A stretch of DNA of 64,000 nucleotides from positions 7,929-71,928 of IMG/VR virus record IMGVR_UViG_3300038321_000157. One strand, written 5' to 3'. The stretch comes from a virus. Position 1 is the first letter of the stretch. Every line of letters starts with the position of its first letter. A program made the translations under genes and the position numbers. Of this stretch, positions 2 to 61,860 are shown one piece after another. A model generated the notes under the pieces. The model was not told where the DNA came from. It made no database searches and saw only the letters and a program-made list of their open reading frames with translations.

Positions 2-175
2 ATTAAAGAATGTAGAAGATTATTAAATCGTATTATGATTGAAGCAGTTCAAGATGAAAATTGGGATGGTGACAATTTTACTAGACCATTAAATGAAATT
101 GCAGAATTAGAAAGAGAAGAAAAGAAATTATTTTGGAATAAAATGCGTGACAATATTGATGGTTGGTGGGATTAG
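2..175 (+). CDS. 3' end of hypothetical protein (ends ...NIDGWWD), truncated by window start
   Basis: Open frame from base 2 to TAG at 173-175. Confidence 0.7.
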   Translation: MKECRRLLNRIMIEAVQDENWDGDNFTRPLNEIAELEREEKKLFWNKMRDNIDGWWD

Positions 176-220
176 AGTAAAATCTAATTTTCATTTTAAA
201 AATAATTGGAGGTGTATATA

Positions 221-589
221 ATGTGTATGGCAACAATATTATCATTTAACTTACTTGAAACAGTGACTACAATAAGAAAAACAAGTAAAGATTTAAACGA
301 ACAATTATCTACCATAGATAAAACTATTTGTGATTTAGAACACGAAATTATGCTTAATAAATTTGATGTATGCAGAGGATATAAGAAATTCAAACAGCTT
401 CAAGATGCTCTGATAGAAAGACGTCAGATCAAAGACGAATGGGAGTTAATTCAACCTTTAATTGCTTATACTGGAACTATAGAAAAGAAAGTAAATGAAT
501 TACATAATACAATTAATGAAAGAGAAAGTAAATATGAGAATAGAAAATATACACCAAGAGTTTTGAAAGGAGAATTAAATGCTAGTTGA
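221..589 (+). CDS. Hypothetical coiled-coil protein
   Basis: ORF track 206..589; start moved to ATG 221 after GGAGGT at 208-213. Confidence 0.7.
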   Translation: MCMATILSFNLLETVTTIRKTSKDLNEQLSTIDKTICDLEHEIMLNKFDVCRGYKKFKQLQDALIERRQIKDEWELIQPLIAYTGTIEKKVNELHNTINERESKYENRKYTPRVLKGELNAS

Positions 590-1185
590 TTGAAACCTGG
601 ATTTTAGTATTTTTATATAGTTGGAAGAAAAAATTAAACATTAAATTAATCTTTTATGATTGGCCTATATATTTCCCGCTGATTTGTTTAATAGGATACA
701 TAGTTTTTGAAGTAATGATATTTAATGACCAATACTGGATTACACAATATGGAACTATTATTAAACCAGTAACTTTGCTTAGTTATTTTGGATTGATGTA
801 CAAATATAATCTTTATTATTCGCAGAATAAAAGTAAAAGTGAATTAGTAAGGTTTTTAATTTCTCCTTTTATAATAGGAATTATTTTCTTGGTTTTAGGT
901 TACATTTTCAACGGAATAGCGATTTTAAGCAACAATGGCCACATGCCGGTATTTCCCTCTTATACATATTTTACAAATTATACGGATATATCTAGTTTTA
1001 CTGAAGATAGTTTTTATATCTTAGGGGATCATACAAGTAAAGCGATTTGGGCTTGCGATTGTATAGACATTTTTTATTCCAATTTAAGTTTGGGTGATGT
1101 ATTCGTAAGAATATATGTTGCAATTTTGATTTATTTTTCGATAAAAAGAGTGAACGAAAAACATAAAATAAATATAAATGTGTAG
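586..1185 (+). CDS. DUF5317-like membrane protein
   Basis: Several hydrophobic segments; 'NGIAILSNNGHMPV' and 'LSLGDVFV' match the family pattern as recalled. Confidence 0.65.
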   Translation: MIETWILVFLYSWKKKLNIKLIFYDWPIYFPLICLIGYIVFEVMIFNDQYWITQYGTIIKPVTLLSYFGLMYKYNLYYSQNKSKSELVRFLISPFIIGIIFLVLGYIFNGIAILSNNGHMPVFPSYTYFTNYTDISSFTEDSFYILGDHTSKAIWACDCIDIFYSNLSLGDVFVRIYVAILIYFSIKRVNEKHKININV

Positions 1186-1205
1186 ACAAACAGCAATAAT
1201 TCTGC

Positions 1206-1235
1206 TAATATGTAATTAGAAAATATTACATATTA
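1206..1235. promoter_or_regulatory. Perfect 11-bp inverted repeat directly before the RBS of the receptor-agrD operon (candidate operator or hairpin)
   Basis: TAATATGTAAT (1206-1216), 8-nt spacer, ATTACATATTA (1225-1235); RBS AAGGAG follows at once. Confidence 0.5.
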
Positions 1236-1250
1236 AGGAGTTGTTGGGAA

Positions 1251-2051
1251 ATGCATAGTGATATATTTAATGCAGTAATGAATACCATATTCGTAAGTAT
1301 TCCAGAAAGTGTTTTATGGATTTTATTCGTATTTTTTCTCATGAAACGGAATGATTTATTGGATGTTTATAGATGGCAATATAATTTGAAACAAATTATG
1401 ATTGCGGCAATTCCAGTATCTATAAGTATAAATGTAATGAGATATATTCTACACGTAAATAATTTAATAAATTTTATTATTATAGAAATAATGATGATTA
1501 TATTAATTGTTTACATAATTAAAAAAAATAATTTTTTAAATGAAAAGATTAGTTATTTAAAAATAGTAATTTATGTAATGCTTGCGGATTTTATTATGAT
1601 TTTTACCACAGAAGGATTATTAGGTTTAATTATAATTCAAATGTTGCATATGAGTATAGATGTAATTAATAATAATATTGGATTAAATATAACTTTATCA
1701 CTTATACCAAGGACGGTACAAATTTTATTAATTAGTTTATGTATATATAAACAAAACGTTGGTAAAATGATTAATTATGTTGAATTAATTTTAAGAAATA
1801 AGATATTGTCAATATCAATGAGTGTGTTTTTAATAACAGTGATAATATCAAATTTTATTTTGCAAAGATTTGTTATGGCAACAAATTATTTAGATCATTA
1901 TATTATGTCAATTAAAATTGCTCTAATAGTATTAATGATAATAATCCCAATAATTATGATCGGGAGTTATATTTTTTCGATCTATAATCTTTTGTGGATT
2001 AATATAAAAACACAAAAAGAGAAAGATAATATGTTGAATGACATATATTAA
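1251..2051 (+). CDS. Polytopic membrane protein (about 7 TM) resembling an AgrC-type sensor domain, with no kinase domain
   Basis: 266 aa, hydrophobic almost throughout; no H-box or N/G1/G2 boxes; stop codon abuts the agrD RBS. Confidence 0.55.
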   Translation: MHSDIFNAVMNTIFVSIPESVLWILFVFFLMKRNDLLDVYRWQYNLKQIMIAAIPVSISINVMRYILHVNNLINFIIIEIMMIILIVYIIKKNNFLNEKISYLKIVIYVMLADFIMIFTTEGLLGLIIIQMLHMSIDVINNNIGLNITLSLIPRTVQILLISLCIYKQNVGKMINYVELILRNKILSISMSVFLITVIISNFILQRFVMATNYLDHYIMSIKIALIVLMIIIPIIMIGSYIFSIYNLLWINIKTQKEKDNMLNDIY

Positions 2052-2064
2052 AGGAGGTGAAATT

Positions 2065-2184
2065 TTGAAAAAATATCGTTTAATTGCAGGTTTAATAGGC
2101 ATCATAGCTATTGTTGGTGCTGGCATGGTGGCATCTCATACCCTATTCAACGAACCCCGCATCCCCTCCATGCTTTCTAAGTAA
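2065..2184 (+). CDS. agrD: AgrD-like cyclic lactone autoinducer propeptide MKKYRLIAGLIGIIAIVGAGMVASHTLFNEPRIPSMLSK (39 aa; not in ORF track)
   Basis: RBS AAGGAGGTGA then TTG; basic/hydrophobic leader, S-x-x-L-F core, x-E-P-x-x-P-x-x-L tail as in clostridial AgrD; AgrB lies 1.4 kb downstream. Confidence 0.85.
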   Translation: MKKYRLIAGLIGIIAIVGAGMVASHTLFNEPRIPSMLSK

Positions 2185-2210
2185 TTAAAATACCCTATCA
2201 ATACTCTAAA

Positions 2211-2248
2211 TTCTGTGCAGATTAATTTTTTAACTCTTCTGCACAGAA
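2211..2248 (+). terminator. 11-bp stem-loop after agrD (likely terminator)
   Basis: TTCTGTGCAGA (2211-2221) / TCTGCACAGAA (2238-2248). Confidence 0.55.
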
Positions 2249-2278
2249 TAATAATATAAAAATATCACCAAAAAACTA

Positions 2279-2307
2279 TTGCAATATTTTCCAGTAAATG
2301 ATACAAT
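2279..2307 (+). promoter_or_regulatory. Sigma-A-type promoter for the mazF-fusion/agrB operon
   Basis: TTGCAA-17 nt-TACAAT with extended TG. Confidence 0.7.
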
Positions 2308-2345
2308 GAAAATGTAAAATAAATAATATAGAAGGAGTGATTTAA

Positions 2346-3230
2346 ATGACAATGGCAATGAATATTTTGAATGAAGTGGAATTTAAAAAGAATATGGAAA
2401 ATGCAAAAACAGAATTATCAATTGCGCTAAAAATAGCAATTGGTCATCGTTCTGTTTCTCAGTTTGCAAGAGATTGTAGAATAGTAGATGTAACATTAAT
2501 CAATGATATTTTAAAAAGAAAGATTAATGTGTTACCTGAAAGAGATTTTTTAAGAATTGTTGAAAGAACCAGTGAAGGAAGGGTAACTTATACATATCTA
2601 TGTGAGATATGTGGTTACACCAAATGTGATCCTAATGAAGATAGGAGTTGGGCAAATTATCATCCAGAGCGTGGAAGTATTTATATGGCTGATTTAGGAT
2701 TGAATAACATGGATTCTGAACAAGAAGGGGTTAGACCTTGCCTTATTATTTCAAATAACATGGGGAATAAACATAGTAGTATAATAACAATTGCACCATT
2801 AACTTCAAAAAGGAAACATAGGTTGCCTGTCCATGTTGATTTAACAGTTCAGGATGGTATGAGACAGAATTCCATTATATGTTTAGAGCAGACTAGAGTG
2901 GTTTCTAAACGTAGGTTATTTTACAATGGTACACCCATGAAGATATTGAAATTAACTGAAGAAAAAATAAATGAAGTTAATATAGCTATTGAAAAGCAAT
3001 TCGGGATTATTGATTTAATGTATAATCCAGATCATGCATTTGAATTGGTAGGACAGATCGAAACACTTGAACATAATATAAAAACGAAAAAAATTAAACC
3101 TTCCTTCTTATCTGAATTGCTTAATGGTAAACGTAAGGAATTAGTTACGTATTGTAAGAAATATAATAGGAACGAAAAGACGATTATTAATAATTACACA
3201 GGGACAAGAGATTTTGTGCCTGTAAATTAG
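2346..3230 (+). CDS. mazF: N-terminal HTH-like domain fused to a PemK/MazF endoribonuclease, with a C-terminal helical extension
   Basis: RGSIYMADL..SEQEGVRPCLIISNNMGN..IAPLTS..LPVHV..SIICLEQTRVVSKRRL aligns by eye with B. subtilis EndoA, catalytic Arg (VRP) and Thr (LTS) kept; N-terminal 'AIGHRSVSQFARDC' is XRE-like. Confidence 0.85.
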   Translation: MTMAMNILNEVEFKKNMENAKTELSIALKIAIGHRSVSQFARDCRIVDVTLINDILKRKINVLPERDFLRIVERTSEGRVTYTYLCEICGYTKCDPNEDRSWANYHPERGSIYMADLGLNNMDSEQEGVRPCLIISNNMGNKHSSIITIAPLTSKRKHRLPVHVDLTVQDGMRQNSIICLEQTRVVSKRRLFYNGTPMKILKLTEEKINEVNIAIEKQFGIIDLMYNPDHAFELVGQIETLEHNIKTKKIKPSFLSELLNGKRKELVTYCKKYNRNEKTIINNYTGTRDFVPVN

Positions 3231-3244
3231 GAGGTTGATAATAA

Positions 3245-3544
3245 ATGATTGATGAGTTAGAAATTAAAAGTTTTGATGCTAGGTTTGGAACCAGATCAAA
3301 AGTGTTTCAATGCACTAATACGATTGTTATAGAAACACCTTTAGACAGTTGGATTGTAAAAGTTACGAACAGACAAACCAGACCACTATGTTTATTGCAT
3401 AAGAACAAATTTGGAAGAATAAATAAATACCACATTCAATCTTGGAAGACAAAAATGTTTCATGTCTATGATTCTATTTACAAACATAAAGGGATGCATC
3501 TTGTAGGTGCACCCAATACATATAAAGGTAGTCAAATAAAATGA
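3245..3544 (+). CDS. Hypothetical protein translationally coupled to agrB
   Basis: GGAGG RBS; ATGA overlap with agrB. Confidence 0.7.
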   Translation: MIDELEIKSFDARFGTRSKVFQCTNTIVIETPLDSWIVKVTNRQTRPLCLLHKNKFGRINKYHIQSWKTKMFHVYDSIYKHKGMHLVGAPNTYKGSQIK

Positions 3545-4134
3545 AAAAATATTTTCGGTACTTATACACCTTAAAATACATTAAATTACTCGCATATATG
3601 TCAGCAAGATCATTACAATTATCACGTAACGAGTCTCATAAACACAAATATATGTATTATTATGGATTTAATATTTTATATGGAGCAATTAATAAAGGAA
3701 CACTCCTTATACTGGCAGGATTATTATTCCATGCGTTACCCCAAATCCTTGTTACTACACTTGCGTTTATGTCACTTAGGGGTTTTATAGGGGGATTACA
3801 TTTTGATTCATATACAAAATGTGCCTGGATTTCATTGTTATGTTTGGTTTCAATAGGGTTATTAGCAAAATATATTCCTTACAATAATATTATAAATTTA
3901 TGTGTGTTTATTTATCTGTTAGTTATTGCTTTCATTTATGCACCAGTTGAACATAAAAATAGACCACTAACAGATAAGAAAAAAATAACTTTTAAATATG
4001 TATCCATTGTAATAATTTTTGCACTATATAGTGCTCAGGCCATAGTTAATAACGATAATATTAGTAATTGCATCATGTACGGTGTTTTATTATCGGGCAT
4101 TATCGCATTGCCAATATTTAAGAAAGTCAAATAA
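3541..4134 (+). CDS. agrB: Accessory gene regulator B-type membrane peptidase/cyclase
   Basis: YGFNIL, LRGFIGGLH..S..KC (catalytic His and Cys), IYAPVEHKNRPL; multi-TM. Confidence 0.9.
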   Translation: MKKYFRYLYTLKYIKLLAYMSARSLQLSRNESHKHKYMYYYGFNILYGAINKGTLLILAGLLFHALPQILVTTLAFMSLRGFIGGLHFDSYTKCAWISLLCLVSIGLLAKYIPYNNIINLCVFIYLLVIAFIYAPVEHKNRPLTDKKKITFKYVSIVIIFALYSAQAIVNNDNISNCIMYGVLLSGIIALPIFKKVK

Positions 4135-22514: not shown

Positions 22515-24395
22515 ATGGATAAAATTCAAAACCTTAAACAACAATTAGATTATCATGATGATTTGTACTATAACAAAGATAATCCTGAATTATCTGATGC
22601 AGAATATGATGCTTTAAAATCACAATATTTATCTTTAACTAACCAACAAGAATACAATTATGTACCTGGAGAAGCACAATTTAAAAAATATACACATCAA
22701 TTTCCTGTTAAATCATTAGGTAAAATTAATACTATTGAACAAGCAAAAACGGAAATTAAAAGACTTTTTCCAGTAGTTATTGAACCAAAATATGATGGGT
22801 TGACTTTAGTTTTGTATCCTGATGGGAAAATAGTTACAAGAGGTAATGGGTTAATAGGGGAAGATGTTACTTATTGTGCAAGCAAATTCGTAAATAAAAA
22901 TCATCCCTTTAAATATTTACCATTTGATTTACCTATTCGTGGTGAAGCAATAATGCCTATTTCTTTATTTAAAGAAATAAATGCAAAAAGAGAATTAGAA
23001 GGTAAAGAATTATTTAAAAATCCTAGAAATGCAATAGCAGGTATTTTAAGGAATAAAGATAATTCTAATGTACCAGAGGGTTTAAGATTTATTGCTTATG
23101 AAATTGTAGGATCAGCAAATTCTCATATTCGGCAATTATTAGAACTTAGAGAATACTTTGAGATTCCTGAAGCAGATACCATATGGAATTATAGTGAAAT
23201 AGATGATGCAATTAGTTTTATTGAAAATTTTGATCGTTTAAAATTAGATTATGAGATTGATGGTCTTGTTATTAAATCTAATAAAGCGAATGCTTTAGAT
23301 GTGTTTGGTGAAGTTGAACATCACCCGAATTCTGCTGTGGCTTTCAAATTTCCAAATCAAGGTGAGTGGAGTGTTTTAAACTCTATAACTTGGCAAACAG
23401 GCAGAACGGGTAGGGTGACTCCTGTAGCTGAATTGAAGCCTGTAGATATCTTAGGAAGCACTATAGAACGTGCTACGTTGCATAATATAGGGTATATTAA
23501 TGCATTAGGGTTACAAATAGGTGATGAAATATTAGTAGTTAAAAGTAATGATGTAATTCCTGCTGTTATTCAATGTAAAGAAACTGAAAGTAGTGAACCT
23601 ATAGAGATTATAGATGAATGTCCTTCATGTGGAAGTAAATTAAAGACTATAAATGATCAATTATTTTGTACTAACGATAATTGTCAAGCAAAATTACTTT
23701 ACAAAACATCACATATGGTTAGTCGGGATGCCTTAAATATTGATGGATTAAGTGAACAAACCGTATTAAAAATGATTGAAGCAGGATATATCCAAGAACC
23801 TTGGGATATATTTGATATTACTGAAGAACAAATTTTAAGACTAGATGGTTTTGCTAAAAAGTCTGCTAAGAAAACATATGAAGCAATTCAAAACGCTAGA
23901 AATTGCGATTTTGATAGAGCAATTTATGCAAGTGGAATTGAATTAGTTGGCAGAAAAGTAAGTAAAGATATTGCTAAAAAATTTGGTTCTTATAATGAAT
24001 TGATTAATTGTTGTTTTTTAGAAGGTGTATTATCTAAAATAGATGGTATCGGTGATAGTATTATTCAAAGTTTTGTTAATAATATTGACCAACTTGAAAA
24101 GTTAGTTAAATATCTTAATATTCAAAAACCAGAAGAAAAGAAAGAATCAACCTTTAAACCACTAGATAACTTAACCTTTGTTGTCACTGGCAACGTAGAA
24201 ACATTTAAAAACCGTAAAGAGTTAGAAGAATTAATTACTTCTCTTAATGGTAAGTTGAGTGGATCAGTTTCAAGTAAAACTAATTACCTAATTAATAACG
24301 ATGTTACTTCAAGTTCTGGTAAAAATAAAAAGGCAAAGGAATTGAATGTGCCAATTATTAGTGAAGCACAATTTAATGAAATGATAGGCAGGTAA
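22515..24395 (+). CDS. ligA: NAD-dependent DNA ligase
   Basis: EPKYDG adenylation motif, TRGNG..GEDVT, RGE, NPRNA, Zn finger CPSC, HhH repeats, BRCT (VSSKTNYLI). Confidence 0.95.
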   Translation: MDKIQNLKQQLDYHDDLYYNKDNPELSDAEYDALKSQYLSLTNQQEYNYVPGEAQFKKYTHQFPVKSLGKINTIEQAKTEIKRLFPVVIEPKYDGLTLVLYPDGKIVTRGNGLIGEDVTYCASKFVNKNHPFKYLPFDLPIRGEAIMPISLFKEINAKRELEGKELFKNPRNAIAGILRNKDNSNVPEGLRFIAYEIVGSANSHIRQLLELREYFEIPEADTIWNYSEIDDAISFIENFDRLKLDYEIDGLVIKSNKANALDVFGEVEHHPNSAVAFKFPNQGEWSVLNSITWQTGRTGRVTPVAELKPVDILGSTIERATLHNIGYINALGLQIGDEILVVKSNDVIPAVIQCKETESSEPIEIIDECPSCGSKLKTINDQLFCTNDNCQAKLLYKTSHMVSRDALNIDGLSEQTVLKMIEAGYIQEPWDIFDITEEQILRLDGFAKKSAKKTYEAIQNARNCDFDRAIYASGIELVGRKVSKDIAKKFGSYNELINCCFLEGVLSKIDGIGDSIIQSFVNNIDQLEKLVKYLNIQKPEEKKESTFKPLDNLTFVVTGNVETFKNRKELEELITSLNGKLSGSVSSKTNYLINNDVTSSSGKNKKAKELNVPIISEAQFNEMIGR

Positions 24396-39206: not shown

Positions 39207-41496
39207 AGAGAATCAAATTAAATGTACAGCGAAAATAAATCAAATTAGATATTATAAAGATAATTGGGGTATTCTTTCTGTTTCCTTAATTGATTCTATA
39301 TATGGAGTAATAAATACAGATAAATATAATTCTTTTATAGTTAAAGGGAATATGGGTGAACCTAATTATCAGGATACTTTTACAATAGTTGCTAATGAGA
39401 CTGATGATCCAAAATGGGGGAAACAATATGAATTAATTTATATGGGAGTATCTGCTGATATATCTACTGAAGATAAACAAAAAATATTTTTATCTAAAAT
39501 ACTTACTCAAAGGCAAATAGAAAATTTATATAATACTATAGAAAATCCTATCGAAGTATTAGAAAATGAAGATATTAAACAATTAACTAAAGTAAAGGGG
39601 ATAGGGGTAACAACTGCTGTCGCATTAATTGAAAGATATAAAGAGCATATAGATTATTCCATTGCTTATGTAGAATTAGATAAATATGGTTTAACTCCTA
39701 ATGCGATAAGAAAAATAGTTGATATGTATCAATCACCAGAGTTGGCAATACAAAAAATAAAAGAAAACCCTTATATATTAGCAGATGAAGTAGAAGGAAT
39801 AGGATGGAAGAAAGCAGATAGTATTGCTTTAAGTGTAGGTATTCATCCTCATGCACCCGAAAGAATAAAAGCATTTATTACATATTTTTTAGAATGTAAT
39901 GCAAATGATGGAGATTCATTTATTTCACCTTCTTTATTAATGGATGGGATAGTTGCAAACATTGGAGATGAATTAGATGATGAACATTTAAGAAATGTTT
40001 TATACGATATGCAAGATGTTCTTTGGTGGGATGAAGATAAAACAAAAATTGGGTTAAAAAGGTATTATGATTTAGAATTTAAAATTACTGAAGAGTTAAT
40101 AAGAATATTAAATGGTCAAAATAATTTTGAATATAAAAATTGGGAAAATGATATTAAAGAAGTTGAAAAAAAGCAAGGATGGGAATATACTTCTCAACAA
40201 ATTGAAGGTATAAAAACTGTTTTAGAAAATCAAGTTGTTATGATTACAGGTCTTGCCGGGACGGGGAAATCGAGTGTTGTTGCCGGAATGTTAAAAGTCC
40301 TTGAAAATTATTCATTTGCTCAATGTGCTTTAAGTGGTAGAGCAGCAGCAAGAATGACAGAAATTACAAATGTAACAGGATATACGATACATAGATTATT
40401 AGGATTTATACCAAGGCAAGGATTTGAATTTAATAAAAACAATCCTTTAAATGAAGATATTATTATTGTTGATGAAGTATCAATGATTGGTGGTTATTTA
40501 TTCTATAGTTTAATTCAAGCTATTAAAAATGGAGCAAAATTAATTATGCTTGCAGATATTGGGCAACTTGAAAGTATTGGAGTATTAAATGTAGCAAGTG
40601 ATATAATAAATTCTAATAAAATTCCAGTAGTAAGGTTAGATAAAATCCATAGACAGGCTCAAAAGTCTGCTATTATTACGGAAAGTATAAAAGTAAGAAA
40701 TGGAGTCCAATTATGTGATAATTCATTCAATGATAAAGAAATTAGAGGAGAACTTCAAGATTTAGAATTAGACATTTACTTAAATAAAGATAAAACAGCA
40801 CAAAAAGTTATAGAAAAGTTTAAAGAAAACCTACCTAAAGTAAATAATATTATGGACATTCAGGTGATTTTACCTATGAAAACTAATGGTAAATCATCAA
40901 CATTTAATATTAACCAAGAATTACAAAACATATATAATCCATATAATCCTTCTATTAAGGAAATCGAAATTAGGCATTCAAAGAATTTAAGTTATAAATT
41001 ACGTATTAATGATAAAGTTATGAATACAAGAAATAATTATAAAACTATAAAATATAATCCTTATTCAGAAGATGAAGAAGAATTATATAATAATGATTCT
41101 GATCTCCAAGTATTTACTCCTATTTTTAATGGTAATTTGGGTGTTATAAAAGAAATCCATTCAAGTTATATGATTATTGACTTTTATACTATTGGTGAAA
41201 TTATTGTACCTCAAAAACATTGGAAATATATCGAACTTGGATACGCAGCAACTTGTCATAAGTTTCAAGGCTCACAAAGTCCTATAGTTATTATTGGTTT
41301 GGATTTTAATGCTTATATGTTGTTGACTAAAGAATGGATTTATACTGCTTTAACCAGAGCACAAGAATATTGTGTACTCTGTGCAGAGAATAAAGCATTA
41401 AGATATGCAATATCTCATAATGGAGTATCTAATAAGAAAACACATTTAAAAGATATGTTAGAAAACTATGGTGCAATTAAAATGAAGGATTATTAA
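39199..41496 (+). CDS. recD2: RecD2-like SF1B helicase
   Basis: HhH region; GLAGTGKS; TIHRLL; VDEVSM; QLESI; HRQA; YAATCHKFQGSQ; YTALTRA. Confidence 0.9.
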   Translation: MSEENQIKCTAKINQIRYYKDNWGILSVSLIDSIYGVINTDKYNSFIVKGNMGEPNYQDTFTIVANETDDPKWGKQYELIYMGVSADISTEDKQKIFLSKILTQRQIENLYNTIENPIEVLENEDIKQLTKVKGIGVTTAVALIERYKEHIDYSIAYVELDKYGLTPNAIRKIVDMYQSPELAIQKIKENPYILADEVEGIGWKKADSIALSVGIHPHAPERIKAFITYFLECNANDGDSFISPSLLMDGIVANIGDELDDEHLRNVLYDMQDVLWWDEDKTKIGLKRYYDLEFKITEELIRILNGQNNFEYKNWENDIKEVEKKQGWEYTSQQIEGIKTVLENQVVMITGLAGTGKSSVVAGMLKVLENYSFAQCALSGRAAARMTEITNVTGYTIHRLLGFIPRQGFEFNKNNPLNEDIIIVDEVSMIGGYLFYSLIQAIKNGAKLIMLADIGQLESIGVLNVASDIINSNKIPVVRLDKIHRQAQKSAIITESIKVRNGVQLCDNSFNDKEIRGELQDLELDIYLNKDKTAQKVIEKFKENLPKVNNIMDIQVILPMKTNGKSSTFNINQELQNIYNPYNPSIKEIEIRHSKNLSYKLRINDKVMNTRNNYKTIKYNPYSEDEEELYNNDSDLQVFTPIFNGNLGVIKEIHSSYMIIDFYTIGEIIVPQKHWKYIELGYAATCHKFQGSQSPIVIIGLDFNAYMLLTKEWIYTALTRAQEYCVLCAENKALRYAISHNGVSNKKTHLKDMLENYGAIKMKDY

Positions 41497-51471: not shown

Positions 51472-52056
51472 ATGGACGTTAAATTAATAAAAGTAAAAGG
51501 CACCTGGAGAGATGTAGCAGATGCAGCTAGGACTACAATTGGGATGGAGGCAGGAACAAACGAACCTTCTTCTAATTGGAAAAGGAAAATGCTTTTATGT
51601 GAACATTCTCCAATAAGAAAAATACATATTAATTGGAAATGGATTAATTTAAAGTCATGGATAAGTGTACATTTTGTACGTCATAAATTTGGAATTGAAC
51701 ATTGGGTTAAAAGTCAAAGACCTGACAGAACGGGAAATAGAGATAATAGAGATAATGCACCACAAGGAACATTAATTGATCATGAATGTGAAGCAAATCC
51801 ACAAGCAGTTATTAATATTAGTAGAAAAAGATTATGTAATCAAGCAATGCCTGAAACTAGAGAAGCATGGAAACTATTTTTAAAAAGTTTAAGATATAAA
51901 GAACCTGAATTATATAGTGTTTGCGTACCTGATTGTATATACAGGGGTTGGTGTTATGAATATAAATCATGTGGTTTTCACAAAACAAATCAATTTAAAG
52001 AACAATTAAATAAATATCGCATAAATATAAATGATTGGGAGGTAAAAGATAACTAA
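51472..52056 (+). CDS. thyX: FAD-dependent thymidylate synthase
   Basis: EHSPIR; VHFVRHKFG....SQR; SRKRLC..A..ETR; C..RGWC.E...CG. Confidence 0.85.
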   Translation: MDVKLIKVKGTWRDVADAARTTIGMEAGTNEPSSNWKRKMLLCEHSPIRKIHINWKWINLKSWISVHFVRHKFGIEHWVKSQRPDRTGNRDNRDNAPQGTLIDHECEANPQAVINISRKRLCNQAMPETREAWKLFLKSLRYKEPELYSVCVPDCIYRGWCYEYKSCGFHKTNQFKEQLNKYRININDWEVKDN

Positions 52057-54221: not shown

Positions 54222-54535
54222 AGGTAGACATTAGGTAGACATACTCCTTATTTTATTGTAAAATACCATATAATTTTATATAAGAAAGTAAAAGATTATA
54301 AGGGAAATAAAAGTTTAATTAATACTGATATATTAGGGATTACAAAAGATTATATAAGAAAGTAATTGAGTATAAAAGAAACACAAGGCAACAGTTCGAC
54401 TCCCCCCGCCTCCACCAATGAAAATACCGAAACACAGGACTTCGTTAAAATAAATCAACTTCTAGGTAGACAAATAGGTAGACATTTAGAAAATTAACTG
54501 ATAAAATATTGCCATAAAATCTTTCTAGGTAGACA
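54222..54535. repeat. Five direct AGGTAGACA repeats flanking the attP core (integrase arm-type sites)
   Basis: Copies at 54222, 54233, 54464, 54476, 54527. Confidence 0.85.
54394..54417 (+). other. attP core: 3' end of tmRNA (ssrA)-type RNA, GTTCGACTCCCCCCGCCTCCACCA
   Basis: T-loop TTCGA, 3' T-stem, acceptor strand CGCCTCC (implies G3.U70) and ACCA; no 5' half upstream; lies between xis and int. Confidence 0.85.
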
Positions 54536-56348: not shown

Positions 56349-57266
56349 CTACTTTACAATTGCTGTTTTAGTATCATTTACCCACTCAACTTTTTTACCT
56401 AATGCTTCCGCAATTTCTCTTAAACTACCAAATGTTTTATCTTCAATAAGAATTCCATTTATTTTTTTATTTTGGACTTCAATATTTACTTTAGGAAAAT
56501 TTTCTTTACTTACTGTTGCTGTTGAAGTATTATTATCCCATTCAATTGATCTATTAATAGAATCACAAAAACTACGAAGTTCAACAAAAGTTTTATTATT
56601 TATTAAATAAGCATTTAATTGTCTATCATCAATTTTAACTTTAGTTTCTAACAAATCTTCTTCATCTCCTCCATGTTCTTTATATTGAACACCAAAATAT
56701 TTACATATAGCTTTACAAATTGCTTTTGCTAAAACTAATTGATGTGCATCATCATAAACCCATATTTCTTCATCAGGATTAGATATAAAAGCACATTCAA
56801 TTAAAGATACAGGTTTCTTAATTGCTCTAACTACTCCAATAGATTTACCAACATTTTTACTACCCCTATTAGTTAATCCTGTAGCATTTACTACTTCATT
56901 TACTAATAATTCTGCTAATTTTATATTATTATTTAGCAATCCATTATATTGCGAATATAAACTTTCAACTCCATGAGCAGTTTTATTTACAGCGGAATTA
57001 AAATGAATTGATATAGCAATATCCGCATTAGAATTATTGCTAAATGCAATTTGGTTATTAACATCTTGCTTGGTATTTTTTGCCCCACCACAAGCAATAT
57101 TTGTATTTCTACTTAAATTTGATTTTATTCCATTTATATTTAATAAATATGCTAATTTTAAAGCAACCGCTAGAGCACCATCACATTCTCTAGTACCTTT
57201 ACTTCCACAAGCACCAGGATCACCGCCGCCATGCCCAGGAATTATATCAACTTTATATTTATACAT
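56349..57266 (-). CDS. Endolysin: Amidase_3 N-acetylmuramoyl-L-alanine amidase with two C-terminal copper-amine-oxidase-stalk-like repeats
   Basis: IIPGHGGGDPGA..E; SIHFNS; LIECAFISN; repeats TFVELRSF..IEWD and TFGSLREIAE..VEWV. Confidence 0.9.
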   Translation of the reverse strand: MYKYKVDIIPGHGGGDPGACGSKGTRECDGALAVALKLAYLLNINGIKSNLSRNTNIACGGAKNTKQDVNNQIAFSNNSNADIAISIHFNSAVNKTAHGVESLYSQYNGLLNNNIKLAELLVNEVVNATGLTNRGSKNVGKSIGVVRAIKKPVSLIECAFISNPDEEIWVYDDAHQLVLAKAICKAICKYFGVQYKEHGGDEEDLLETKVKIDDRQLNAYLINNKTFVELRSFCDSINRSIEWDNNTSTATVSKENFPKVNIEVQNKKINGILIEDKTFGSLREIAEALGKKVEWVNDTKTAIVK

Positions 57267-59662: not shown

Positions 59663-59917
59663 CTACTGCGTAACAAACTCCACTTCTTCTGTATCGGGAT
59701 TTATTCGATATCCTCTACAAATTGCGAAGCTATCGCTTAATTCTCCGAAGGTGAGTTGTTTAACCCCTAAATGTTCCGGTGCAATTAATGTCAATACTGG
59801 CATTACTTCCATATCCTGCTCCAGCGTGGTTTCTACCACATCGCCTTCCATTTGGCCTTTATCCCAAATCACAACGCCATTCGTTTTCTTATAATATATT
59901 TTTCGTCCTATTTGCAT
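59663..59917 (-). CDS. Small tail-fibre-associated protein (putative chaperone)
   Basis: MQIGRKIYY..G..VETTLEQD..GYRINPDT pattern; directly after the fibre gene. Confidence 0.6.
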   Translation of the reverse strand: MQIGRKIYYKKTNGVVIWDKGQMEGDVVETTLEQDMEVMPVLTLIAPEHLGVKQLTFGELSDSFAICRGYRINPDTEEVEFVTQ

Positions 59918-59928
59918 TTCATTACCTC

Positions 59929-61860
59929 CTATTCAAAAGCATACCAATAATATGTATTTGTATAACCAACTGGTAAACAAAAACCAGTACTATTAACATA
60001 CATAGGTGCATCAGCAATTATATAAGAATAATATTCATCACAAATATAATGTAAATTATTGTTAGCTGTCTTAATTACTCCAGCAGCTTGATAAATTACA
60101 GGTTTTGTATATGATGATGTTCGGTCAACTACTAGAATTGTTGAAGGAGTAAATGTTAGTCCTGAAACAGTAACAACATATTTATCATAAGTACTTGAAG
60201 AGGTGTTATTATATCCCTGAATACTATAGGTAGTACTGCCTCGCGAAATAGTCCCACTTGCAAACTTTTTCATCCCCGAACCATCGACCGCATTACCGGC
60301 TACCCCAAAAATACTCTTCCCAGATAGGATATTAGTTGCTAATAGGTTAGCATCCCCTTTGATAGTCTGTATCCCAGCTAAATACTGCCCCGCTGCAATA
60401 GTTTGGTTAGCCGTTCCGGGTGTATAAGTCTGAGCAGCTTTGCTCGTAATAGTACCTGTAATCTCTCCTGCATCCGTTGTTGCCGTTTTGCCAGAGAGAA
60501 GGTCAGATGCAGTAGCAGTACCCGAAGCACCTTCACCCTGTAATATAAAATTTGTGCCATCATACCTCAATGTATAAATGCCATTAGCTTTTAGGTTTGT
60601 AACATCGGTACCATTAGCTTTTTTAATGGCTTTTGCACCTAACCCATTTATGTTAATAGTAGATGCGCCGGTACTGTCCACATTAATCTTTACAGCAATT
60701 GCCATACCAGCAACCAAAGACGTTGGTGCGGGGTTGAGAGTAACAGCATAGGTATTAGTACTACCACTTGATATTGTATATGGTACATGCTGCGTTTCAT
60801 CGGCCAAATGTTCACTAACTTTTTTCCCAACACCACTAACCAAAGGTCTTTTATCAACAATCGTATTTACAGTTTTATCTGATTTTGTACTAACCGTACC
60901 TATTGTTATACTACCTATTGAAGTAGTTCCATCTGTACTACTTGCAAAATTACCATCATTTTTTAAATAAATAGTATAAGTAGTACTTGCGGTTACTGGT
61001 GTAATATTTAAAGTAGTATCAGATGTTTTTGTTATAGTATTGATTGTTGTGGAATTAAATGTTTCACCTGAACCTGAAGATATTGTTATAGATAATGTAT
61101 CTGTTCCAGATGTGTAAGTTGCAGATTTTATTTTGAATGGAGTTTCTCCACTATCCAAAACTTCATTAATAGCACCAACTAAAGAAGTTTTATTATTTGT
61201 ATTTAAATTAGATAATGTTTCACCATTACCAGCTAAAAATAATTCAAAATAATTTTCATTAGTTGGATAATTACCTGTACTGTCTACAATACAACGATAT
61301 AAATTAGCATTGTAATAAACCAAATCATTTACATGATACTGTGTACTTGCAGAAAAATTGCCTTGTGGTGTTACCCCCACACCGTAACCTGTGTCACCCT
61401 TAATACTAAGAGTTCTCCAATATGTAGAACTAGAAGATGGGGTTTGATTTAAAGAATCTTGTAGTGCAATATAAACATTATCATCTGAATAATGTACGAA
61501 ATTCATTGTTTCATATGTTATAGCAGGATCATAAGTACCTTTATCAGTAAATTGTGCTATTAACGCATCAAATTCTGTTTGTTTGGTTGTAATGTAACCT
61601 TCTACCGAATTTTTGAAAAAGTTTTCAACCGCATAAACGCAACTCGCAAATTTATTCCATACTTCAGGAGTTAAAATATAATCTTGAAGCAAAGTTGTTA
61701 AGGATTGAAATTCAGTTTCTTCTTCAGAAGTTCTAGTCTTCTGTCTTAATACCATATATCTCTCTGCATTTGTTACTTGAGAAACTGGAAGATCGAGAAG
61801 TTGAACAAAACTATCAAGATTTGTTGGAAAACTCGATAATGAACCATCTAAATAACTCAA
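59929..61860 (-). CDS. Tail fibre / receptor-binding protein
   Basis: Thr/Ser/Gly-rich; carbohydrate-binding-like Y..ND.V.Y repeats; LVGAINEV; HLAD..H module; A.KIL.GKSIFGVAG. Confidence 0.75.
   Translation of the reverse strand: MSYLDGSLSSFPTNLDSFVQLLDLPVSQVTNAERYMVLRQKTRTSEEETEFQSLTTLLQDYILTPEVWNKFASCVYAVENFFKNSVEGYITTKQTEFDALIAQFTDKGTYDPAITYETMNFVHYSDDNVYIALQDSLNQTPSSSSTYWRTLSIKGDTGYGVGVTPQGNFSASTQYHVNDLVYYNANLYRCIVDSTGNYPTNENYFELFLAGNGETLSNLNTNNKTSLVGAINEVLDSGETPFKIKSATYTSGTDTLSITISSGSGETFNSTTINTITKTSDTTLNITPVTASTTYTIYLKNDGNFASSTDGTTSIGSITIGTVSTKSDKTVNTIVDKRPLVSGVGKKVSEHLADETQHVPYTISSGSTNTYAVTLNPAPTSLVAGMAIAVKINVDSTGASTININGLGAKAIKKANGTDVTNLKANGIYTLRYDGTNFILQGEGASGTATASDLLSGKTATTDAGEITGTITSKAAQTYTPGTANQTIAAGQYLAGIQTIKGDANLLATNILSGKSIFGVAGNAVDGSGMKKFASGTISRGSTTYSIQGYNNTSSSTYDKYVVTVSGLTFTPSTILVVDRTSSYTKPVIYQAAGVIKTANNNLHYICDEYYSYIIADAPMYVNSTGFCLPVGYTNTYYWYAFE

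Follow-up and report, generated by a model that had tools for sequence, protein, structure and literature searches.

The locus examined here lies in a 64,000-nucleotide stretch of phage DNA (positions 7,929 to 71,928 of the IMG/VR virus record IMGVR_UViG_3300038321_000157; called the window below, with position 1 as its first letter) and centers on a short open reading frame (ORF) of the plus strand at 2065 to 2184. The ORF opens with TTG, runs for 39 codons, and ends in a TAA stop at 2182 to 2184; it encodes MKKYRLIAGLIGIIAIVGAGMVASHTLFNEPRIPSMLSK, a peptide of 39 amino acids with 0 Cys. The gene for a 266-amino-acid membrane protein with seven long helices lies directly upstream, and a gene for an AgrB-family peptidase/cyclase lies farther downstream (Table 1). 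We conclude with good confidence that the ORF is the agrD-type propeptide gene of a phage-borne agr-type cyclic signal in which Ser takes the place of the ring Cys. The source record is a 139,278-bp virus genome, rated complete by CheckV, with the gene content of an SPbeta-like phage (DndB-like and MrpR-like genes adjoin the locus). The phage is large and of the Clostridium type, and the G+C content of the window is 26.7%.

The peptide gene is conserved in related phages

The upstream membrane protein has about 20 relatives at 52 to 82% identity. We fetched the contigs of 11 of these, which together with the window gave 12 loci for comparison. The gene order common to the fetched relatives is DUF5317, the membrane protein, a gap of about 170 to 290 nucleotides, and a fusion of a helix-turn-helix (HTH) region with PemK/MazF; it continues with an ORF of about 100 amino acids (in most loci), AgrB, and then DndB and MrpR where the contigs extend that far. 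The gap holds an ORF of 37 to 39 amino acids in all 11 relatives, although gene callers had called it in only 2 of them and skipped it in the other 9. A Shine-Dalgarno (SD) sequence, GGAGGTG (GGATGTG in locus L005), was followed at matching spacing by a TTG or ATG start in 12 of 12 loci, and the indels that separate copies of the peptide gene (L005 and L011) were multiples of three. The neighbor proteins of the 12 loci are just 52 to 82% identical, yet the frame, the SD, and the length of the peptide ORF have been kept.

A profile search added seven members, so that the family comprises 18 sequences. Ser24, Pro31, and Ser35 were invariant in 18 of 18 and Pro34 was present in 17. The ratio of nonsynonymous to synonymous divergence (dN/dS) of the C-terminal tail was 0.11 to 0.22, while the ring and the leader varied freely (leader nonsynonymous divergence, pN = 0.42); a dN/dS above 1 in the ring was not demonstrable, since synonymous sites were saturated. 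The four residues after Ser24 differed between almost all loci, with 11 distinct rings in the 12 loci; among the variants were HTLF, HLLF, RHLF, RHLL, HSML, HAFL, HFLL, HWFL, HTLL, RYFL, HYLF, ASWY, FSVF, and FMAL. A chance ORF in an intergenic gap might well be short, start with TTG, and be missed by gene callers in most relatives, as this one is, but the conservation of frame, SD, and length across the 12 loci, the indels in multiples of three, and the constrained tail effectively refute that reading, to which we leave next to no probability. The gene is real and conserved. A check of the whole 139-kb genome found no further AgrD-like ORF.

The peptide family is homologous to AgrD

AgrD propeptides consist of a hydrophobic or amphipathic leader, a short core, and a charged follower tail, with a total length of about 40 to 50 amino acids (PMC12312760). 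The window peptide has the same three-part layout (leader 1 to 23, core 24 to 28, tail 29 to 39), and its 39 amino acids fall just below the quoted range. Its tail of 11 amino acids is shorter and less acidic than staphylococcal tails and typical of clostridial ones. It carries the motif P-x-x-P (P31-R-I-P34), which in the follower tail is the place where AgrB binds (PMC3901668).

We compared the 18-member family with a panel of 37 AgrDs, made up of 35 peptides from clostridial genomes that pass the model TIGR04223 and the peptides of loci L015 and L016. The latter two are Cys-AgrDs scoring 20.2 and 38.1 bits under TIGR04223, and their two bacterial loci share the order AgrB, membrane protein, and then peptide. 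Profile-profile alignment with hhalign matched the family to the panel at 96.5% (E value = 9e-10) over 40 of 41 columns, against 1.0% for a reversed decoy and at most 1.5% for 20 column shuffles. In this register the ring Cys is the counterpart of the invariant Ser, and N-[EQ]-P-x-x-P-S in the tail coincides with [YH]-Q-P-x-x-P-K; taken as a whole, the follower tail corresponds to [YH]-Q-P-x-x-P-K-x-L in clostridial AgrDs. Each part also aligned when taken alone, the leader with AgrD leaders at 79% (E value = 1.6e-5) and the core plus tail with the panel at 92%. Furthermore, a hidden Markov model (HMM) built from the panel recognized ten family members at 15 to 24 bits. These results indicate that the family is homologous to AgrD.

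Ser at the ring position has precedents within the panel and among bacteria: 8 of the 37 TIGR04223-positive clostridial AgrDs have Ser or Thr there, and two close bacterial homologues differ by a Cys/Ser interchange (L062, ...TACSSTFYQPK, versus L078, ...SASSSTFYQPK). The initial annotation had taken the ORF for an AgrD without Cys, preceded by a full SD, with Ser as the ring residue. The SD and the lack of Cys are as it read them, the AgrD identity is borne out by the full-length profile alignment and by the conservation of the locus in relatives, and the choice of Ser agrees with the alignment of Ser24, invariant in the family, to the AgrD ring Cys.

An intact AgrB and the predicted processing of the propeptide

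Residues R80, G85, H87, and C94 were invariant in ten phage AgrBs, and their spacing equals that of R70, G75, H77, and C84 of Staphylococcus aureus AgrB, which are needed for proteolysis (PMC10196373). An AgrB with intact catalytic residues was found in every locus that extends that far. The AgrBs of L002, L004, L005, and L007 have an insertion of about 15 to 40 amino acids in the N-terminal cytoplasmic part; the window AgrB is without it.

AgrB is predicted to cut after Phe28, at the bond to Asn29, five residues ahead of the second proline. SHTLF is the best prediction for the ring because the register matches that of clostridial AgrDs with known products; the initial annotation had likewise placed the ring S-H-T-L-F ahead of the NEPRIP tail, and alignment to the known clostridial AgrB cleavage position (PMC5322536) favors the same choice. 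The predicted product would be cyclo-SHTLF, made by the phage AgrB.

In the mechanism that we propose, agrD would be cotranscribed with, and translated just after, the upstream membrane-protein gene, and the 39-amino-acid propeptide would insert in the membrane via its hydrophobic leader. The phage AgrB would recognize the N-E-P-R-I-P-S tail and cut after Phe28, giving an acyl-enzyme on its catalytic Cys, and Ser24 would attack the acyl-enzyme to form the five-residue lactone S-H-T-L-F. Removal of the leader, probably between Ala23 and Ser24, would leave a pentapeptide without an exocyclic tail. Tail-less clostridial autoinducing peptides (AIPs) rearrange from thiolactone to lactam, the fate of serine versions having been left open (PMC8251862); by analogy, the free-amine lactone may undergo an O-to-N acyl shift, and the final molecule may be a head-to-tail cyclic peptide, not a lactone. 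The four variable ring residues would define the pherotype, and the adjacent membrane protein would be the most likely partner to read or handle the ring. We infer both cleavage sites, the cyclization, the export, the identity of the receptor, and the downstream output.

Ring similarity tracks the adjacent membrane protein

The closest backbone relative of the window is L004. At the DNA level, the window and L004 are 98.6% identical from 3646 up to where the L004 contig stops (beyond 6924) and 78.7% identical over 1230 to 3493, and the block that differs is at least 3.3 kb long (window 172 to 3493). Because the breakpoint lies in agrB (Table 1), the exchanged block comprises DUF5317, the membrane protein, agrD, HTH-MazF, and the 99-amino-acid ORF, not the peptide gene alone. 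Protein identity between L004 and the window is 100% for DndB, 85% for MazF, 83% for AgrB, 70% for the leader, and 71% for the membrane protein, and the L004 ring, SRHLF, differs from that of the window. The identical ring, SHTLF, occurs in L002, where identity is 81% for the membrane protein, 40% for DUF5317, 57% for MazF, and 39% for the leader.

Across the 12 loci, the similarity of the ring was correlated with the similarity of the membrane protein (Mantel r = 0.38, P value = 0.01), and the correlation held while controlling for MazF (partial Mantel r = 0.41, P value = 0.0016) and for AgrB (r = 0.42, P value = 0.003). Ring similarity did not follow AgrB, MazF, DUF5317 (Mantel r = -0.02), or DndB in the same loci; with the 99-amino-acid ORF, the raw correlation was 0.35 (P value = 0.025). 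In addition, leader similarity was correlated with AgrB similarity (partial Mantel r = 0.39, P value = 0.02). Plain linkage is a poor explanation, because the leader codons lie between the membrane-protein gene and the ring and follow neither. This pattern is suggestive of agr logic: ring and receptor form one matched pair, and the leader and tail go with the processing enzyme. The 12 loci have 11 rings, so the peptide is not invariant between relatives, and ring and candidate receptor co-vary, both as would be expected from the pherotype diversification that the initial annotation had in mind. The tracking of the adjacent seven-helix membrane protein by the ring is the new observation here, and we regard it as suggestive.

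A seven-helix membrane protein as candidate receptor

The AlphaFold2 model of the membrane protein has a mean predicted local distance difference test (pLDDT) score of 92.9 and seven long helices. The sequence had no Pfam, NCBIfam, or informative PHROG match, and fold searches against afdb_swissprot, pdb, pdb_via_wide, afdb_clusters, and atlas returned no convincing family; AgrC was absent from the results. Among named folds, SpoIIGA matched best, through its N-terminal membrane domain (probability 0.97, template modeling [TM] score 0.38, E value = 0.7). In a feature search of the atlas, a cluster with the automatic name "putative sensory transduction protein kinase" matched at 0.92, which serves as a lead only. 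A predicted complex of the membrane protein with the propeptide scored 0.00, a value obtained without controls that counts neither for nor against binding.

A 1.8-billion-protein library held 133 relatives of the membrane protein, of 240 to 326 amino acids, with 0 kinase fusions. In 17 of 23 clostridial loci, an AgrD-like gene lay directly after a member of the membrane-protein family, and at least 12 of those 17 peptides were TIGR04223 positive; AgrB was adjacent in some of these loci only. In one genome, only 2 AgrBs accompany at least 6 AgrDs and 7 hits to the membrane protein. At G001:C2:62527-65969 there is a tandem array of three membrane-protein genes, and a model-positive AgrD comes after two of the three.

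Since the membrane protein is paired about one to one with the peptide and co-varies with its ring, the simplest reading is that it acts as a specific receptor; a role as ring-specific exporter or as leader peptidase is possible as well. We consider it possible, though doubtful, that this kinase-less seven-helix protein is the cognate ring-specific receptor or handler, that the two genes form a portable pherotype module widespread in Clostridia, and that the module serves these SPbeta-like phages for phage-to-phage communication without phosphotransfer and is moved by recombination from one phage backbone to another. At least 15 ring variants occur naturally in this clade, each ring with its own membrane-protein variant; AgrB is shared less strictly. 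Were the membrane protein the receptor, agr-type signaling could do without a histidine kinase, and a second, arbitrium-like channel with pherotypes would be available to temperate phages of Clostridia. The kinase-less membrane partner is a more interesting lead than the peptide.

Evidence against an agr-type signal and a noncyclized alternative

Several results weigh against the propeptide assignment. The window copy had no match to the Pfam AgrD model at an E value of 1 or below and none to TIGR04223 at an E value of 10 or below, so that the curated cut-off was not reached; only 3 of the 18 family members match TIGR04223, weakly, with a best E value of 0.028. Under the panel HMM, the window copy scored 8.6 bits, rank 2 of the 575 small ORFs in the window. 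The gene for AgrB begins 1.36 kb downstream of agrD, behind an apparent separate promoter. Neither HATPase_c_5 nor HATPase_c nor LytTR had a match in the complete 139-kb genome, and the locus has neither the AgrC kinase nor the AgrA/LytTR regulator of a canonical agrBDCA system. Finally, the Mantel results come from 12 related loci and concern physically adjacent genes. The curated models tested (NCBIfam TIGR04223 and Pfam PF05931) are short (38 positions) and centered on Cys, and by its panel HMM score the window copy is among the most diverged members of its family. Because these models miss the window copy, it is the family profile and the intermediate members that link it to AgrD. For annotation the finding is of use, since gene callers (in 9 of the 11 relatives) and the curated models both overlook this gene.

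If the peptide were not cyclized, it would be a Sec-type linear peptide similar to Phr or AimP, or a single-pass membrane subunit of the seven-helix protein, and the ring Cys would have been lost. The absence of Cys, the signal-peptide-like N terminus, the failure of the curated AgrD models, and an operon shared with the membrane protein and not with AgrB would all suit this alternative. However, a decayed site would hardly keep Ser at the exact ring position in 18 of 18 sequences, and the most conserved part is the follower tail recognized by AgrB, whereas signals of the Phr/AimP type place the specific mature peptide C-terminally. All loci long enough to include agrB retain the enzyme with its catalytic residues intact, and Ser-cyclized AIPs are experimentally established (PMC5322536, PMC12312760). 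We therefore consider a noncyclized peptide very improbable and retain the agrD-type propeptide with a Ser ring.

Codon bias in the peptide gene does not mark a recent swap

The initial annotation had noted a rise in G+C with many C-ending codons in the peptide gene and had concluded that the gene was recently swapped, as expected for pherotype diversification. Its counts are exact (30 of 60 nucleotides G+C at 2101 to 2160, 13 of 60 at 1981 to 2040), and only 0.36% of the 60-nucleotide windows in the 64 kb reach 30. C-ending codons make up 11 of 38 sense codons, against 1.8 expected under the codon usage of the phage (P value < 5e-5); the long ORFs of the window nowhere hold as many among 38 consecutive codons. 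Amino acid content lifts the expected G+C fraction from 0.267 to 0.331, and 0.430 was observed; the rise is thus not fully explained by Gly, Ala, and Pro. The G+C anomaly is genuine, and composition explains only part of it.

Codon usage is normal in most relatives; L002, whose ring and tail are the same, has 4 C-ending codons versus 3.0 expected. The agrD of L012 (L012:3664-3783) shows a separate excess of C-ending codons (8 versus 2.5 expected, P value = 0.002), and the bias may recur in agrD and not be unique to the window. The codon core of the tail, GAA CCC CGT ATC CCT TCC, is almost identical in seven loci whose flanks are 70 to 80% identical, and its codons are rare in these phage genomes. 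Four of the eleven C-ending codons (AAC, CCC, ATC, and TCC) recur in most of the seven loci, which form the EPRIP subgroup. Synonymous divergence (pS) was 0.34 in the tail versus 0.53 to 0.77 elsewhere. Because the core is conserved in seven loci and the tail pS is low, part of the C-rich signal is old and maintained. The window has additional T-to-C third-position changes of its own.

Two explanations of the signature were weighed. If the peptide gene alone had recently come in from a source richer in G+C, this would account for an excess of C-ending codons that amino acids do not explain and that most relatives lack, and the locus is indeed mosaic, its membrane protein being nearest to L002 and its leader, AgrB, and MazF nearest to L004. 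However, no donor was found: the C-rich allele of the window was absent from the viral collection, and the same ring-plus-tail peptide occurs elsewhere only in L002 and its duplicate L084, which use ordinary codons. The known relatives are all phages of 24 to 31% G+C. The peptide gene is no more diverged than its flanks (70 to 72% identity to L004, within 1 standard deviation of the block mean of 79 ± 9%), four of its C-ending codons are old, and the sole clear exchange block spans at least 3.3 kb. A recent import is accordingly improbable, and the proposed swap of the peptide gene is not upheld; what stands of the pherotype diversification idea is the recombination and the ring diversity, not the G+C signature as a mark of a recent event. 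The other explanation is an mRNA-level constraint that keeps the C-rich tail codons in place: base pairing of CC(U/C)UCC in the Pro-Ser codons with the SD of the same gene would damp propeptide translation. In the window sequence, the minimum-free-energy fold pairs GGAGG with CCUCC, and the probability that the SD is paired was 1.00, compared with 0.65 ± 0.24 in synonymous recodings (P value = 0.013); SD-to-tail pairing was at least 0.8 in 7 of 12 loci, and the low tail pS fits as well. On the other side, only 2 of 12 loci exceed their recoded controls, four loci have little or no pairing, RNAalifold gave no consensus pairs, the fold z-score is just -2.0, and Pro-Ser codons look like an anti-SD under any codon choice. 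We give this constraint a small chance of being the cause. The rare codons conserved in the tail core are a minor oddity, and could be a sign that propeptide synthesis is controlled at translation.

A template repeat of the diversity-generating retroelement type or a duplication was excluded, as no second copy of the segment exists in the genome. Scans of the region for tRNA/transfer-messenger RNA and with Rfam gave no hit, which set aside a known RNA gene or a tRNA-derived attachment core as the origin of the G+C-rich patch. Other 60-nucleotide windows with at least 50% G+C occur at 23381 to 23400, 40231 to 40247, 51492 to 51507, 54376 to 54389, 57166 to 57193, and 59790 to 61360; five G+C-rich patches cluster at 59.8 to 61.4 kb.

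Comparison with known agr-type systems

The closest characterized parallel is the AgrD Clo1313_2818 of Clostridium (Acetivibrio) thermocellum, in which SignalP predicts a cut between A24 and S25 and the S25-F29 pentapeptide lactone was confirmed by liquid chromatography-tandem mass spectrometry (LC-MS/MS) against a synthetic standard (PMC5322536). Like the window peptide, it has Ser for the ring Cys with Ala directly before it (A24 and S25, versus A23 and S24), a five-residue ring ending in Phe (S25-F29 versus S24-F28), and an aromatic or polar residue after the ring followed by a P-x-x-P tail, and in neither case does agrD adjoin agrB. In contrast, the window gene is phage borne, encodes another ring sequence, and always follows the gene for a seven-helix membrane protein; LC-MS/MS has detected the peptide of C. 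thermocellum, and the product of the window gene is a prediction only.

The nearest relative of the window peptide is a bacterial AgrD subfamily with the same upstream membrane protein. AgrDs that match TIGR04223 (L016, L026, and L031) share with it the length, the basic and hydrophobic leader, and a ring residue five positions before [YHN]-[QE]-P-x-x-P. The tail distinguishes them, being N-E-P-R-I-P-S in the window and Y/H-Q-P-K/E-x-P-K in the panel; moreover, Ser is fixed throughout the phage clade, and the window copy lies under the curated cut-off.

Phage-borne agrD and agrB have been known since the agr3 locus of the Clostridioides difficile phage phiCDHM1 (PMC3901668). Both phages have agrD and agrB without an AgrA-type response regulator, and both AgrDs carry P-x-x-P. 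Unlike the window phage, phiCDHM1 has an AgrC-like histidine kinase and three contiguous agr genes, whereas in the window phage agrD is paired with a kinase-less seven-helix protein and agrB shares an operon with an HTH-MazF fusion. The AIP of Staphylococcus pseudintermedius and the GBAP (FsrD) of Enterococcus faecalis are Ser-cyclized lactones (PMC12312760), and like the predicted window product they are cyclized on Ser by enzymes of the AgrB/FsrB type. However, GBAP has a nine-residue ring and the S. pseudintermedius AIP has an exocyclic tail, and both peptides are bacterial and act in canonical two-component signaling of the AgrC/AgrA type, unlike that of the window. A serine ring is not very unusual; serine AIPs and phage agr genes were already known.

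Neighboring genes and other features of the locus

The features of the locus are listed in Table 1.

Table 1. Features of the agrD-type locus, in window coordinates
Feature	Coordinates	Strand	Remarks
Membrane protein, 266 amino acids, seven long helices	1251-2051	+	No named family; candidate receptor
Shine-Dalgarno sequence GGAGG	2053-2057	+	7 nucleotides before the TTG start, 2 nucleotides past the stop of the upstream membrane-protein gene; read directly
agrD-type propeptide gene (probable)	2065-2184	+	39 codons plus stop; positionally matched ORF in 11 related loci
Leader M1-A23	2065-2133	+	Basic N terminus, then hydrophobic helix
Predicted core/ring S24-H-T-L-F28	2134-2148	+	Ser24, predicted nucleophile; Phe28, predicted acyl donor
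Follower (AgrB-recognition) tail N29-E-P-R-I-P-S-M-L-S-K39	2149-2181	+	Carries the P-x-x-P motif
C-rich codon core GAA CCC CGC ATC CCC TCC	2152-2169	+	Rare codons; nearly the same nucleotides in seven related loci
Inverted repeat, 11-bp perfect, TTCTGTGCAGA ... TCTGCACAGAA	2211-2248	.	16-nucleotide spacer; 27 nucleotides past the agrD stop
Recombination breakpoint versus L004	3493-3646	.	Inside the 5' part of agrB; L004:7246-7529
AgrB-family peptidase/cyclase	3541-4134	+	PF04647, E value = 1.2e-36; separate downstream operon

Neither the locus nor the peptide had a BLAST match in the phage collection, and a related-locus search in viral contigs with the membrane protein was likewise empty. In ten of the eleven relatives, as in the window (586 to 1185), the cassette begins with the DUF5317 membrane protein. 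L008 has an ORF at this place, and in L004 the DUF5317 gene is displaced by an extra gene of 484 amino acids. Two hypothetical genes precede agrBD in Clostridium perfringens (PMC2706048), and a relation of these to DUF5317 or to the seven-helix membrane protein is conceivable. Downstream of the peptide gene, window 2346 to 3230 encodes 294 amino acids as a fusion of an N-terminal region with PemK/MazF (PF02452, E value = 1.6e-21), and this HTH-MazF gene heads the operon that also contains agrB. A second, stand-alone PemK gene lies a few kilobases upstream in L006, L007, and L010.

The arms of the inverted repeat behind agrD change jointly in relatives (GTGCAG/CTGCAC, GTACAG/CTGTAC, and GTAGAG/CTCTAC), and no U-run follows the repeat. 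These features fit either a 3' RNA hairpin or an operator that co-evolves with a dimeric regulator. The repeat sits between the peptide gene and a promoter-like site of the HTH-MazF operon at 2279 to 2307; the promoter and terminator scan gave 32 promoter-like sites versus 34.7 expected in this AT-rich DNA.

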